Below, piece by piece: positions 573 to 11,771 of a DNA stretch of 64,000 bases. Location: positions 23,870,001 through 23,934,000 of the forward strand of contig OZ231126.1 in assembly GCA_965153355.1 (NCBI GenBank). The letters run 5' to 3'. Both the position numbers and the translations under genes were made by a program. Below the pieces are notes generated by a model. That model did not search any database. It had not been told where the DNA came from and saw nothing but the letters and a program-made list of their open reading frames with translations. The stretch's first letter is position 1. The number at the start of each line of letters is the position of its first letter. The DNA comes from Flaccisagitta enflata (lineage: Eukaryota).

Positions 573-2496
573 TTAAATAAACTGGGTTTATTTGGGTTTT
601 TTTCAAAATTTTTTTTTTTTTTTACATTCCTTGTAGATAGTGACATTGCTCGAGGTTCGGATTTGAGCCTTAAGGCGGGGGATTTGAGCCTTGAGGCTGG
701 GATTTTTAAGGCTTGATTTTCTTTTGAACTAGGATTTCATCTAAACAAACAAGCGTTTTTAAGAAGGCTTTACATACAGAAGGAAAAAAACACATTGCGC
801 CTTTCTTCCTCCTTCCTTCCATCCTTCTTTCTTAATTCCTTCCTTCTTTCTTTCCTTCCTTCCTTTGTTCTTTCCCTCCTTTCTCTATAAACAGGAGGAG
901 AAAAACTTTTTCTGCCTTTCTTCCTCCTTCCTTCCTTTCTTCCTTCCTTCCTTCCTTCCCCTTCCTTCTTTCTTTCTATGTAAACAAGAGGAAAAAACTT
1001 TTTTTGTTTTTCTTCTTCCTTCCTTCCTCCCTTCTTTTCCTCCTTTATAAACAAAAGAACAAATTTTTTTCTGCCTTTCTTCCTCCTAACCTCCTTCCTT
1101 CTTTCCTCCCTTCTTTCCTTCCTTCCTTGCTTCCTTCCTTATCTCCTTTCTTTACAAACAAGAGGAAAAAATTTTTCTGCCTTTCTTCTTCCTACCTTCC
1201 TTCCTTCCTTCCTTCCTTCCTTCATTCCTTCTTTCTTTCCTTCTTTTTTTCCTTTCCTTCCTTTTCCCTCCTTTTCCTTCCTTTTCCCTCCTTTTCCTTC
1301 CTTTTCCCTCCTTTTCCATTCTTTTCTTCTTCTTCTTTTTTTCTTTCTTTCCTTCCCCCTTTGCTTCCTACCAGCCTAGCTAGCTTCCTACGAGCGCCGC
1401 TCGCGTGCTCGGGCACTTTGTGACACCCTGGCTGCGATTCTGCTGCCAATCTGCTGCGAATCTGCTGTGATTTGGGCGTGATTCGGCCGCGACTTGGCAA
1501 AGATTCGTCCTCAACTACGGCATCCATTTCTGTGTCCTGTATCTTATTGTTCGTTTCCGCCTCCGTTTCCCTATTTTGACGAAGAATTTCCGTGTTCCCA
1601 AGTCTTAGGCGAAGACAAGGAACACGGATTCGCTAGTCACACGTCTTCGAGCAGTGGCGTTGCGGTGGTGAAAAGGAACTTAAAAGAAAAAAAAAAAAAC
1701 ATTTGACCAAAGGCAGTCATGGAGCGAGTAACCTGTGGTAACAATATCGTCAAGCGATATCGAGCAAGCAACTGTCAAACTAAGCCCACAAGCTTCAATC
1801 AACAACAAAAACTCGGGCCTTATCACGCGCTGCGCCACAAATCCACATTAGTATTGAAGCAAAAAAAAAAAAAAAAAAAAAAAAAAAAAAGAAAAAAGAA
1901 ACCGATATAACTCGTATCCATTTTTGATATCATATTTAAGTAGTTTATCCACAAATTCGTGTTTATAGCATCTCTCGCGATGAGATTTGTAGCAACAGCA
2001 TCTGTGGCAACTGCATCAGCGTCTGCTTAAGTCACGGTGCACACGAAGAGCAAATTTGACCGGTCAAATAGGTGAAAAAATAAAGTTGATTTAATCGTGA
2101 ATTTTTTTTTACTGTCATGTATAATAGTATAAGGAGTGTTAACACTGAAAATTTCAATGCAAAATCTCTTTCCGTTTAGGAGCTACGTTCCATTTTACCC
2201 TTCTAGAAATGCAATTTTTTAAACTATACAAATTATCTAAAAAATAAATTTGAAAACTATTTTGTCAGTTACAATGCTTAATACTACTTTAAATCCTGTT
2301 GGAATATATAAGTTGATGAAAAAAATACAAAAAAAAATTGATATTTCTTTTATATCCTTCGTCAAAATAACAAATTTCTAAGTAATTTTTGATCATTATT
2401 TGTATAGCAGAAGTTTATTTTTATTTCATGATATCATTTGAACAAAATATTTTATGTAAAGGACTATTGTTTTTATGCAATGAACTAAATATATTA

Positions 2497-2697
2497 TTAG
2501 TCGCGTGCATGCGACTGTACAACCCGCTTTGTCGGTCGGCTGGTCGGTCGGTCGGTTGGTTGGTTGGTCACACTTCACTCTTTTTATGATTTTATTTTTT
2601 TGACCTCATTGCTCCTGCCCAAATGATCTGGTGACCTCAAATATGGCCCCTGCACACGCGCACGCGTCTTCGGTAGCCGTGTATCTGGCCTTGTTTT
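2497..2697 (+). mobile_element. HINE-like family 1 copy nested inside the large transposon (a further partial copy follows at ~2750-2895)
   Basis: Same architecture as, and high similarity to, 371-572. Confidence 0.72.
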
Positions 2698-3614
2698 TAA
2701 ATATAAATGTTTTTACGTATCATTTTTGGCGTATACAAGTAGATTTTTGTTGCTTTGTCGGTGCGTTGTTCCATCAATCAGTTTACTTTTTTTGGTTTTG
2801 CGGTTTGTGGCATCACTGATTCTACTCAAATGATCAAGTGACCCTAAATATAGCCCCTGCCCAACTGGGGTAGCCATGTATCCGGCCTTAGTTTTATTAA
2901 AGGAGGTTCAATCTTGAATTTCAGTACATTGCAAAATAACATATTATACTAAATTATAAAAATATCTTTATCTAAGAACATAAAAAAACTTTCCTCTTTT
3001 GACGTTTGTCATAAGAGTTGCAAAAAGTGGCTTTGACAAGGATAGAGGTATTTGTCAAATGAAGTTACCAGACGTTGTAGTTTTTACTTTGATAAACATG
3101 CCAAACAGGACTGCAGTTTTGTGACTGCACCTTAATGCAACTAGTAAATAACTGCATGCATAGGTCCTTAAATCAACAACCCACAAATTTTACAGAAAGG
3201 CACATCTCATTGGAGCTACTGTTTATTTTGCCCTTAGAATTGGGAACTTCATGCGTACATATGTAAACAAGACATTATTGTCCAGTGAAGCAGGCTCATA
3301 TCCTCTTCATTTCACTAAAATAACCAAGTCAAGGATTTTCATACAAATGTCTTTTAATGTTATCATCAAAACATGGGTAAAGTAAATTGGCACAAAACAA
3401 TATTGCCATACACAAAAGTGTTGTACGACGCAATAAATAATAACACAATAGTGTTGGGAGACCTAATAAAGGGGGACACAATAGTGTTGAAAGACGCAAT
3501 AGAAAGATCACAGTGTATGACGCGATGACAAAAGAACACGCACGTAGGGCTAATTGATTGCCATGGCAACGGGACACAAACAGAAACGCATCGCATCACG
3601 GCGGAGGAAGAAAA

Positions 3615-4116
3615 TTAAGATGCGAGAAAATATCGGTCCTGATTCCCGTCATCGCTATCATCGTTGCTTTTCTCATCATCATCATCATCATCATCATCAT
3701 CATCATCATCATCATCATCATCATCATCATCATCATCATCATCATCATCATCATCATCATCAACTTCGCTACCGCTGCTGTCTTCGTCTTCATCTACGTC
3801 TGTTTCAGCATGATCAGAGTTTTGTCCATCAATGTCACTGAGAACATCGAAATCCTCCTCCTCCACTTCCTCCTCCTCCACCTCTCCCTGTCTCACCGAA
3901 GCTGCTTCCGTCGGCGAAGCAGCACGACATGGTCGGCTGATGCCGTCGGCAGCTTGACAAGCGGCACAAAGAGTTCCAACCCGGCAATCAAAGCAGGGAA
4001 ATTCCCGAGCGACGACTTCGTTTCCGCGCAGCTGCAACGAGCGAACTTTCAAAATTCCACGAAGGGGGACACCGATTGGCTGACGATTTCGTTCGAAAGG
4101 AGGTACGTATTCAACA
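3615..4116 (-). CDS. Transposase exon 6 (C-terminal CxxC-x5-CxxC and acidic tail with 29 consecutive Asp)
   Basis: Acceptor tgtttttgcttcAG (4118-4117), stop TAA at 3617-3615; the (GAT)29 tract is in frame. Confidence 0.87.
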
Positions 4117-10184: not shown

Positions 10185-10197
10185 GTTGCTTAGCAAC
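10185..10197. promoter_or_regulatory. RFX X-box-like palindrome ~55 bp upstream of the transposase ATG
   Basis: GTTGCTTAGCAAC, flanked by TGACGT (CRE-like) half sites near 10147 and 10208. Function is inferred from the motif only. Confidence 0.4.
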
Positions 10198-10299
10198 ATT
10201 ATGCAATGACGTAAATACATGCGTTACAGCATGCTCGGTCTTAGTGTTATACCTTACTGTAGACATATCAGCAAGAAAATCTTTTCTTCTTGTTTATCT

Positions 10300-11315
10300 T
10301 TTCTTCTTCTTCTTCTTCTTCTTCTTCTTCTTCTTCTTCTTCTGCTTCTGCTTCTTCTCCTTCTTCTTCTTCTTCTTCTTCTTCTTCTTCTTCTTCTTCC
10401 GAGCTGCACCTCAAACATTTTCTTACTATTTTCTCTACTTCTTCTGCTTCTCTTTCTTCTTCTTCTTCTTCTTCTTCTTCTTCTTCTTCTTCTTCTTCTT
10501 CTTCTTCTTCTTCTTCTTCTCTTCTTCTTCTTCTCTTCTTCTTCTTCTTCTTCTTCTTCTTCTTCTTCTTCTTCTTCTTCTTCTTCTTCTCCTTCCTCTT
10601 TGATATACTTGTATAACCCTTCACGTTCCCTTTCTTCTTCTTTCTTTTTCTTTTTCTTTTTCTTTTTCTTTTTCTTTTTCTTTTTCTTTTTCTTCATCTT
10701 CTTCTTCTTCTTCTTCCCTCCTGTACCTCAAGCATCAGCGTGACTTCTTTTTTCTCCATATTATTCCTTCCTTGACACTTTTTTTTTCTCTTTTGCTTTC
10801 TTTTTCTTTTTCTTTTTCTTTTTCTTTTTCTTTTTCTTTTTCTTCTTCTTCTTCTTCTTCTTCTTCTTTTTCTTCTTCTTTTTCTTTTTCTTTTTCTTTC
10901 TTCTTCTTCTTCTTCTTCTTCTCCTTCTTTTTCTTCTTTTTCTCCTTCTCCGTTAGCGTCTGTAGCGTAAGCCCCGCATTGACTTCAGGAGTTGAAAATC
11001 AAACGGAAACAGAAGAACAACTCGATGGCGCTCTCTCTCTCCCCCTCTTCCTCTCCCCTCTCTCTCTCTCTCTCTCTCTCTCTCTCTCTCTCTCTCTCTC
11101 TCTCTCTCTCTCTCTCTCCTATGCTCGTCCATCCTTGCGTTGCGTTGTCTCTTTCCGCTTCCCACCCAACCCTTCCTTCTTTCCTCCCTGTCTCCCTCTC
11201 TCCTCCCTAACCTCCCCCATCCTCTTTTCAACCCCCCTCCCCTTTTCTCTCTCTCTCTCTCTCTCTCTCTCTCTCTCTCTCTCTCTCTCTCTCTCTCTCT
11301 CTCTCTCTCTCTCTC
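10300..11315. repeat. (CTT)n, (TTTTTC)n and (CT)n microsatellites upstream of the transposase
   Basis: Direct inspection. Confidence 0.95.
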
Positions 11316-11771
11316 CTTGTGAAGAAATTTGACAGCTCTCGCATTTTTTTTCCGGTAGGTAGTCTTACGTGAAATTCTTATTTTGCATAGAAATCAACTA
11401 TATCAAAAAAACAAAAACATGGCCCTGTTCTCCACACACTAGGGATCAGGGCCATGTTTTTGAAAAGTGCAAAAAGCCGTTTTTGCGGCAGATTAAGAAT
11501 TTCACGTCCAAGAAATAATATTGTCAAAATTCTCTACAGGTTTCTTTTTTCGTCTTGTAAGTGGAAAAAAACGCTGAAAATCGTTACTATCTCCGATTCT
11601 TTGTTAAAGTATATGCAAATAGGATACATTGTCCAAGTTGAAAGCAATAGTTGGGTTTTTGGCATTGTTGAGTACAAGAAATATGCGTTTCAAGCCTGAA
11701 AACCAGCTGATTTTTTAAATTGCTTTTCAGGTGCACCGTGACTTAAGCGAACAAAGCGCTCGTAGGAGGTA

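Follow-up and report, generated by a model that had tools for sequence, protein, structure and literature searches.

A stretch of 64,000 nucleotides from Flaccisagitta enflata (contig OZ231126.1, positions 23,870,001 to 23,934,000; hereafter the window, with coordinates counted from its first letter) contains a split gene for a putative transposase, which raises the question of whether this gene still belongs to a complete mobile element and, if so, of which kind. Our analysis indicated that window positions 2031-11742 very probably represent one full-length autonomous cut-and-paste DNA transposon, which duplicated TTAA on insertion and carries a six-exon transposase gene. TTAA followed by GTCACGGTGCAC is found in inverted orientation at both ends, at 2027-2042 and 11731-11746. 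The left terminal inverted repeat (TIR) core, GTCACGGTGCAC on the plus strand at 2031-2042, and the right core on the minus strand at 11731-11742 are perfect over 12 nt, and the termini of the element read 5'-GT ... AC-3'. Identical copies of TTAA lie directly outside the left core (2027-2030) and the right core (11743-11746), with 9712 bp between the two duplications, and the likeness of the two ends continues imperfectly for about 12 bases past the core, until ~2057 on the left side.

The pattern TTAAGTCACGGTGCAC has exactly two sites in the 64-kb window, 2027-2042 (+) and 11731-11746 (-), even when up to 3 mismatches were allowed. That these ends match by chance and do not bound the gene is a reading that draws on the examination of a single copy and on the richness of the window in repeats; however, the exact inverted match between the ends is 18 nt long (GC, TTAA and the 12 nt of the core), a length reached in 0 of 200 shuffles of the flanks, where the maximum was 16 and occurred once. 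In addition, the match brackets the transposase gene symmetrically, ~1.6 kb from either end of the coding region, with a 4-bp direct repeat outside. We therefore regard a chance match as highly improbable, and the claim of the earlier note that the element is complete and bounded by TIRs and TTAA was borne out. No second copy of the element was found within the window, either with the end pattern or by tblastn of relatives. When metagenome contigs were searched with the TIR consensus pattern, one match was obtained, in a GC-rich contig of 1.4 kb; it lacked TTAA, showed no similarity past the pattern and was judged to be due to chance.

The coding region of the element lies on the minus strand and comprises six exons, separated by five introns that all possess GT..AG borders, and the exon phases agree. 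Exon 1 (10132-8970, aa 1-387) encodes a basic N-terminus with low-complexity tracts rich in Ser/Pro and Gly, and holds a conserved GRP..MTP..RK..ARS.AA..RW block, with tblastn HSPs of relatives at 9739-9566. Exon 2 (7729-7362, aa 388-510) encodes a helical pre-catalytic region with the motifs FAKR.. and PENARSVPG, and exon 3 (6825-6615, aa 511-580) a conserved block that extends from ..SVGYGVR.PK.. to ..RN.CP.H.N.R and is 42-49% identical to 10 of the 11 tested relatives and 31% identical to the other, P0041. Exon 4 (6109-5492, aa 581-786) contains a Cys cluster, a beta hairpin, a long helix and the motifs EDYQRN (D719, beta1) and TDDLQHD (D772, H775), while exon 5 (5254-4895, aa 787-906) contains SDNC (D807, after beta4), QFKS, HEGK (E844) and SDVAG (D850, helix alpha4). 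The last exon (4116-3615, aa 907-1073, with the stop codon at 3615-3617) encodes a Cys-cluster tail and an acidic C-terminus, in which a perfect (GAT)30 repeat at 3673-3762 codes for 30 Asp; here the tblastn HSPs of relatives begin at 4115-4127.

Intron 1 (7730-8969, 1240 nt) consists mostly of a (TCTT)n array at 7807-8671 and intron 3 (6110-6614, 505 nt) mostly of (AAAG)n and (CT)n microsatellites, and intron 2 (6826-7361, 536 nt) contains a (CA)n tract at 6917-7070 as well as a dispersed repeat nested at ~7085-7345. Intron 4 (5255-5491, 237 nt) includes 24 bp at 5375 that are absent from DNA run X1, and intron 5 (4117-4894, 778 nt) harbours a nested MITE of 413 bp at ~4373-4787. The 5' non-coding part of the element (10133-11730), presumed to comprise the promoter and the 5' UTR, is largely microsatellite, with arrays of a 3-nt period at 10280-10949 and of a 2-nt period at 11031-11315, and the 3' non-coding part (2043-3614) contains a nested dispersed host repeat at ~2494-2703.

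Joining the exons gave a coding length of 3222 nt, that is, 1073 codons and a stop, with no internal stop. In tblastn searches, all 11 of the 11 independent full-length relatives matched the six exons only, in order, and their matches ended at the proposed junctions; thus, the gene model goes beyond what chance could produce. Four of the five junctions align with the relatives without an indel at the junction, and the remaining one, between exons 1 and 2, falls in a variable region in which the relatives are longer than the window protein by 8-10 aa. The intact six-exon gene for a protein of 1073 aa with five GT-AG introns, proposed earlier from the open reading frames, was thereby confirmed by its consistent phases and collinear relatives, and the motifs quoted with it (DYQRN, TDDLQHD, SDNC..QFK and HEGK..SD.AG) are all present in the translated protein.

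To which protein family does this transposase belong? A phmmer search of 1.84 billion representative proteins with exon 4 returned 173 matches at E<=1e-3, of which 68 were at <=1e-10 and 5 at <=1e-30; a word-index protein search with the same exon, set to longer proteins, yielded none and so missed relatives that the exhaustive phmmer search detected. The full-length relatives are 788-1054 aa long, are collinear with all six exons and show 27-33% identity across up to model residues 96-1019, and 77 of the 99 columns that are at least 90% conserved in the family are kept in the window protein. The relatives begin with the same basic stretch and have a region of 360-440 aa ahead of the catalytic part. 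The N-terminal extension of ~390 aa that the earlier note had singled out is accordingly not an addition of this element but mostly a feature of the family; the window version is nevertheless ~70-150 aa longer, owing to Ser/Pro- and Gly-rich inserts.

The family is widespread and lacks annotation in public protein sets. In a look-up of 18 clusters, all of the relatives were unnamed or misnamed, the sole names being 'trichohyalin-like' and 'uncharacterized protein'. No Pfam transposase family matched the translations of five window exons or 135 relatives (E<=1 for both), and the sole Pfam match of the family was a PWWP domain in 13 of the 135 relatives. This domain is C-terminal and fused to the transposase in roughly one in ten examined members, and tblastn with the relatives detected no PWWP exon in the window. 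A sequence search of the PDB with the family profile likewise retrieved PWWP domains only (best E 0.0023) and no transposase. In the nearest Atlas clusters, with scores of 0.97 and 0.90, PF25273 (DUF7869, of unknown function) occurs in 38% and 10% of the members, respectively; this likeness is a lead only, and a literature search found no mention of DUF7869. A search with the full-length alignment of the family in viral contigs (182 pattern matches), genome contigs (65) and metagenome contigs (596) produced no confirmed relative.

The fold of the catalytic part was assessed in an AlphaFold2 model of a relative, P0003, covering the equivalent of exons 4 and 5 (pLDDT 91.6, pTM 0.87). The modelled core is of the integrase type and RNase H-like, as the earlier note had anticipated for the latter. 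Its best structural matches were the cores of retroviral integrases, with 141-156 aligned residues and Z 10-11.4, followed by IstA (Z 10.0), Mos1 (Z 8.9) and Hermes (Z 7.7), and the top Foldseek match was the MMTV intasome (E 2.9e-4). The elements of the model follow the order beta1-beta2-beta3-alpha1-beta4-alpha-beta5-alpha4, with Asp residues directly after beta1, directly after beta4 and early in alpha4, which are conserved in 116 of 120, 47 of 54 and 37 of 43 non-gap sequences, respectively. By fold topology, the predicted catalytic triad is D719 / D807 / D850, and TDDLQHD (D772), in the modelled loop between beta3 and alpha1, is an additional conserved acidic site and not the second catalytic Asp. 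The original DDD reading of the motifs therefore stands with respect to three conserved Asp at canonical places, but not with respect to TDDLQHD, which topology sets outside the triad. D807 and D850 are 43 residues apart with no C/DxxH between them, the DxxH at D772-H775 lying before beta4, and alpha4 follows beta5 with no insertion domain in between.

The cores of retroviral and retrotransposon integrases and of IS21 IstA have their strands and helices in the same order as this model and acidic residues at the three corresponding positions (Z 10-11.4), but their sequence identity is 8-14%, they have other N-terminal domains, and the third residue of the integrases is Glu, whereas it is Asp here. 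The transposases of Ginger and other integrase-derived transposons are described as matching Pfam rve, PF00665 (PMC5751038); there was no rve match in five exons or 135 relatives. GingerRoot elements are reported with a 6-bp duplication and TIRs of 100-150 bp (PMC6839031). For the pre-catalytic region, a model of the relative P0047 (pLDDT 88.3) gave a best VIA match at Z 6.7 and matches to homeodomain, SETMAR and TetR-type helical DNA-binding domains at about Z 5, and Foldseek returned no match for it at E<=1e-3; none of these matches was taken as assigning a fold.

TTAA duplications are best known from the piggyBac and Kolobok superfamilies, and the TTAA at both sides of the element would suit a divergent member of either. 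Like piggyBac, the element combines a TTAA duplication with a DDD triad, but it differs in its termini and its compact core, with only 43 residues from the second to the third Asp, and PF13843 (DDE_Tnp_1_7) was matched neither by five exons (E<=1) nor by 6 full-length relatives (E<=0.1) or 135 relatives (E<=1). Kolobok, as characterised in PMC9587614, has a TTAA-specific 4-bp duplication, 5'-RR ... YY-3' termini and Cys clusters in the transposase. The duplication and the Cys clusters recur here, whereas the termini are GT..AC and not RR..YY, the third residue, in the triad assigned by topology, is Asp, and the C/DxxH and the insertion domain given in that description are absent between D807 and D850 and between beta5 and alpha4, respectively. 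A divergent piggyBac or Kolobok element is thus a most improbable identification.

The Sola superfamily of eukaryotic DNA transposons was reportedly introduced by Bao, Jurka, Kapitonov and Jurka in 2009. By elimination and from its general features, compared by description only, the element most likely belongs to this superfamily, a placement in which we have modest confidence. According to a general account, Sola elements encode a DDD transposase, generate a 4-bp duplication, measure 2-9 kb, with some above 15 kb, and have TIRs of 11-1124 bp (PMC10741241). The present element agrees in its 4-bp duplication, TTAA directly outside both TIRs (a Sola feature in PMC10741241 and PMC3627910), and in its DDD-type transposase of RNase H-like fold, in which topology places the triad; its 12-nt TIRs fall within the cited range, and its 9.7 kb are close to the usual size. 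Because Sola itself is stated to have no Pfam model (PMC5751038), the lack of a Pfam match is expected for a member.

Membership in the Sola2 group is a tentative proposal. The dictyostelid Sola2 elements DFa-2 and PPa-1/4/5 are described with TIRs of 12-13 bp or 21 bp, a transposase of ~888 aa, AWWT targets (ATAT, AAAT, ATTT) and a Fanzor1 gene (PMC3627910). By this description, the short TIRs and the AT-rich 4-bp duplication are shared, whereas the target here, TTAA, is AT-rich but outside AWWT, and no Fanzor1 gene was seen. A literature search on features of the Sola groups, including PWWP paired with Sola, provided general statements only. The earlier note likened DYQRN, TDDLQHD, SDNC..QFK and HEGK..SD.AG, together with the Cys clusters, to the pattern of Sola2 DDD transposases.

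The departure from the AWWT of the dictyostelid elements (PMC3627910), together with the absence of a Pfam transposase match, the uninformative names of the relatives and the fact that the nearest Atlas clusters offer PF25273 only, could also point to a lineage outside the described superfamilies, or to an additional group alongside Sola1-3, with a compact integrase-like DDD enzyme targeting TTAA. However, the want of a Pfam model is shared by Sola as reported (PMC5751038), and the general Sola features given in PMC10741241 are all present, so this alternative is rather unlikely. The likeness of the motifs to Sola2 given in the earlier note also argues against it.

Is the copy young and mobile? 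Further copies of the repeat at ~2494-2703 were located by blastn at 371-579, 21768-21972, 38074-38296 and other window positions, and that in intron 2 has 11 partial matches elsewhere in the window. The MITE in intron 5 has inverted ends of 37 nt; DNA runs X1 and X3 contain a form that lacks these 413 bp, and the word depth over the MITE rose to ~1.3 million, compared with ~220 on the exons. A tRNA scan of the nested repeats for a SINE origin gave 0 genes. These three host repeats and many microsatellites occur only in non-coding parts of the element, and their accumulation in the introns and non-coding ends suggests that the copy has been immobile for some time. The coding sequence is intact, yet the copy is not young; that the element may still be active, as the earlier note proposed, is a conjecture.

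An intact frame amid such accumulation could also mean that the host has domesticated the transposase and that an old, now immobile insertion left the inverted ends behind. The five introns and the 77 of 99 retained conserved columns would agree with this, as would DNA run X1, in which depth over the exons was even and one haplotype was seen, a result that would also fit a single-copy locus. Introns are, however, common in the genes of eukaryotic DNA transposons, and an anciently immobilised copy would not usually retain, as this one does, perfect 12-nt ends and two perfect copies of TTAA. In addition, 0 reads from poly-A RNA run X23 of this organism fell on 3800-6165, a weak test with only ~6% of the run read. 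In metatranscriptome X12, one contig of 212 nt lies within exon 4; it spans none of the junctions and may derive from DNA. Marine metagenome rows with small shares, in the range X5-X22, did not enter the analysis. We consider domestication unlikely and retain the reading of a transposon with its own ends.

Such a transposon would work through a protein with, in order, a disordered, basic, low-complexity N-terminus, a helical pre-catalytic region that presumably recognises the ends of the element, a Cys cluster, a compact integrase-like RNase H core (D719, D807 and D850, with D772), and a C-terminal Cys cluster with an acidic tail. The transposase would bind the inverted ends of 12 nt together with adjoining sequence and excise the element, the 3' ends of which would then be joined, at a stagger of 4 bp, to a target TTAA.

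The element is an ordinary, well-preserved cut-and-paste transposon, a neat representative of a type already known and not a new type, and the find itself leaves the knowledge of transposition unchanged. Its value is that of a clean, fully delimited reference copy, with both ends, the target duplication, a six-exon model and predicted catalytic residues, for a transposase family that is unnamed or misnamed in public protein sets; it is usable for annotating such elements in marine animal genomes and could seed a profile for a family with no Pfam model. It is an unlikely reading that the family, with at least 173 relatives, forms an undescribed lineage, either a new Sola group or a separate superfamily of compact, integrase-like DDD enzymes inserting at TTAA, in which the PWWP domain fused in about a tenth of the examined members could steer insertion to H3K36-methylated chromatin; if true, a fused chromatin reader would guide insertion much as LEDGF does for HIV integrase. 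The PWWP-fused relatives offer a testable case of a DNA transposase with a chromatin reader of its own.

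We read the exon borders of the transposase gene from the sequence and checked them with scripted coordinates. Both exactly bore out the structure proposed in the earlier note, namely six minus-strand exons joined through five GT-AG introns into a protein of 1073 aa: exon 1 (10132-8970), exon 2 (7729-7362), exon 3 (6825-6615), exon 4 (6109-5492), exon 5 (5254-4895) and exon 6 (4116-3615). The introns measure 1240, 536, 505, 237 and 778 nt, and GT..AG borders are present in all five. The exons total 3222 nt, corresponding to 1073 codons plus a TAA stop, and the phases agree throughout.

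A Pfam scan of the translations of five exons matched no family. When exon 4 served as the query in an exhaustive phmmer search of 1.84 billion representatives, 173 proteins matched at E<=1e-3; 68 of them reached <=1e-10 and 5 reached <=1e-30. A profile search contributed further full-length relatives of 786-1054 aa. The joined protein is 27-33% identical to the full-length relatives, and its alignment with one of them, P0014, spans residues 96-1019 of the model. When the full-length relatives were compared with the window by tblastn, the matches of all 11 were confined to the six exons, in order, with the rest of the window unmatched, and the match ends (6826/6614, 6111, 5256 and ~4121) fell at the proposed exon borders. 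Alignment with 16 relatives showed good conservation around the E2/E3, E3/E4, E4/E5 and E5/E6 junctions, none of which coincides with an indel; around the E1/E2 junction the sequence varies, and there the window protein falls short of its relatives by 8-10 aa. In the same alignment, the window protein keeps 77 of the 99 columns conserved at >=90%, and of the 22 lost, 5 fall in a PWWP domain missing from this copy and several others are conservative changes. The N-terminus (MGFKKKR..) is basic and similar to those of the relatives, which supports the start codon. The earlier note had described an unusual low-complexity N-terminal extension of ~390 aa; this was not supported as stated, the N-termini of the relatives being likewise basic.

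To reveal the fold of the protein, we used P0003, a 342-aa database fragment that is equivalent to exons 4 and 5 and 36% identical to the gene model. Its structure, predicted with a 135-row alignment (pLDDT 91.6, pTM 0.87), contains an RNase H-like domain at residues 122-341, preceded by a Cys cluster, a beta hairpin and a long helix. In a structural search against representatives, retroviral integrase cores ranked top, with the MMTV intasome first (Z 11.4, rmsd 3.6, 153 residues aligned), followed by RSV (Z 10.8), ASV (Z 10.7) and IS21 IstA (Z 10.0), while lower or similar matches were found to Argonaute PIWI domains (Z 9-11), Mos1 (Z 8.9) and Hermes (Z 7.7). The MMTV intasome was also the best Foldseek match (E 2.9e-4). 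The elements of the model run beta1 (136-141), beta2 (165-177), beta3 (189-198), alpha1 (205-222), beta4 (228-233), short helices, beta5 (262-267) and alpha4 (275-294), which in this prediction is the integrase order. That order places the putative catalytic residues at the end of beta1, just after beta4 and early in alpha4, that is, at D142, D234 and D278 of P0003. These correspond to D719 (EDYQRN), D807 (SDNC) and D850 (SDVAG) of the window protein and are Asp in 116 of 120, 47 of 54 and 37 of 43 non-gap sequences, respectively; the topology suggests that they cluster. The TDDLQHD motif, located in the beta3-alpha1 loop, is also well conserved, with Asp in 85 of 91 (window D772) and His in 80 of 86 (window H775) non-gap sequences. 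RNase H1 carries an extra glutamate in roughly the same place, and on the predicted model we read the motif as an additional conserved acidic site rather than the second catalytic Asp. The earlier proposal of an intact DDD transposon is supported. The region preceding the catalytic core, modelled in the relative P0047 (pLDDT 88.3), is mainly helical; its model had no convincing structural neighbour (best Z 6.7), with helical DNA-binding domains near Z 5. This region may serve in recognition of the element's ends.

The terminal repeats and TTAA reported at both ends were confirmed. By direct reading, the left end from 2027 runs GC TTAA GTCACGGTGCAC, and the reverse complement of the right end from 11746 is identical. 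The exact inverted match between the ends is 18 nt, and similarity extends ~12 bases past a 12-nt core. We compared 3.6 kb left of the stop codon with 4 kb right of the start codon, and in 200 shuffles of these flanks 18 nt was never reached, the maximum being 16, once; because shuffling was by 2-nt blocks, this test is approximate. The 16-nt sequence TTAAGTCACGGTGCAC, with <=3 mismatches allowed, has only two sites in the 64-kb window, which are the two ends of the element. Outside TTAA, the two flanks differ except for GC, indicating that the duplication is the 4-bp TTAA, and the site before insertion would have read GCTTAAGC.

Three superfamilies are known to make 4-bp duplications of the TTAA kind. 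A piggyBac origin was rejected, as its Pfam model was unmatched in five exons, in 6 full-length relatives and in the 135 aligned relatives. Kolobok was also rejected: the termini of the element are GT..AC, not the RR..YY of Kolobok described in PMC9587614, the third putative catalytic residue is Asp, no inserted domain is present, and the 43-residue interval between D807 and D850 lacks a C/DxxH motif. Ginger elements are integrase-derived and match Pfam rve according to PMC5751038, and rve was unmatched in five exons and the 135 aligned relatives, which speaks against Ginger; for GingerRoot, duplications of 6 bp are given in PMC6839031. Sola elements, as described in PMC10741241 (citing Bao 2009), have a DDD triad, a 4-bp duplication, a length of 2-9 kb with some >15 kb, and TIRs of 11-1124 bp, and according to PMC5751038 they have no Pfam model. 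All of these features, compared by description only, agree with the element. The dictyostelid Sola2 elements described in PMC3627910 have TIRs of 12-13 or 21 bp, in agreement with the element, but their duplications read AWWT, whereas that of the element is TTAA. Judged on described features rather than sequence comparison, membership of the Sola superfamily is slightly favoured, and on the same footing the narrower Sola2 assignment made in the earlier note is tentative and somewhat doubtful. That the element represents a lineage so far undescribed seems unlikely.

Tandem repeats occupy much of introns 1-3 and of the 5' non-coding region, and a perfect (GAT)30 tract at 3673-3762 lies in the coding sequence, where it specifies an unbroken run of 30 Asp within the transposase's acidic C-terminal tail. 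In addition, three host repeats are nested in the non-coding parts of the element. One, in the 3' non-coding part (~2494-2703), belongs to a second dispersed family with copies at 371-579, 21768-21972 and 38074-38296 and shorter pieces. Another, in intron 5 (~4373-4787), is a 413-bp MITE with 37-nt inverted ends that are 92% complementary. The third, a dispersed repeat in intron 2 (~7085-7345), carries a short (GACC)n tract and is matched in part at 11 other places in the window, including 12257-12369, 20819-21018, 21519-21589, 32213-32341, 34766-34828, 37218-37269, 45587-45695 and 52961-53008; ARAGORN found no tRNA-like part in it. Elsewhere in the window, a 2-kb block at 26001-28000 has a G+C content of 0.26, compared with 0.37-0.47 in the rest.

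We compared window 3800-6165 with the reads and contigs from four public runs. In the DNA run X1, word depth was even over the exons (~185-230, one haplotype). X1 showed two fixed differences from the window (4983 and 5452), and its only contig at 5375, in intron 4, lacked 24 bp; therefore, the X1 individual or copy is not identical to the assembled one. Word depth over the intron 5 MITE rose to ~1.3 million in X1, against ~220 on the adjoining exons. The form without the 413-bp MITE was found in X1, as a single contig of depth 130 whose shorter side has 24 letters, and in one 179-nt contig of the marine metagenome X3 (82 and 97 letters per side, 1 difference). These forms indicate that the MITE came after the transposon and that at least two versions of the locus or element exist; either the insertion is polymorphic or only one copy carries it. 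X3 also contained parts of exons that differed at 0-1 positions over 168-206 nt, and the metatranscriptome X12 yielded one 212-nt contig within exon 4. The poly-A RNA run X23, under the same organism label, gave 0 reads on this interval with ~6% of the run read, a result that carries no weight either way on transcription. The element's description as potentially active is not supported as stated.

The PWWP domain is precomputed in 9 of 16 proteins from the profile search, and a scan matched it in 13 of the 135 aligned relatives, where it is C-terminal and follows an acidic linker; the bearers include P0009, P0011, P0017, P0167-P0170, P0173 and P0174. No PWWP was found in the 64-kb window. Among the papers listed in literature searches, none that treats DNA transposases with a PWWP domain was seen; PMC12460157, one of those listed, concerns DNMT3. 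We looked up 18 clusters of relatives, drawn from ENA, JGI/IMG and Logan assemblies, and all were unnamed or 'hypothetical protein' with one exception, from the hemichordate Ptychodera flava (P0090 and P0185), whose proteins are called 'trichohyalin-like' (XP_070564656.1) and 'uncharacterized protein' (XP_070549715.1). Public protein sets leave the transposase family without annotation or give it a wrong name. The element is well preserved and of a known kind, and it comes from a poorly annotated family of which a minority carries a chromatin-reader domain.
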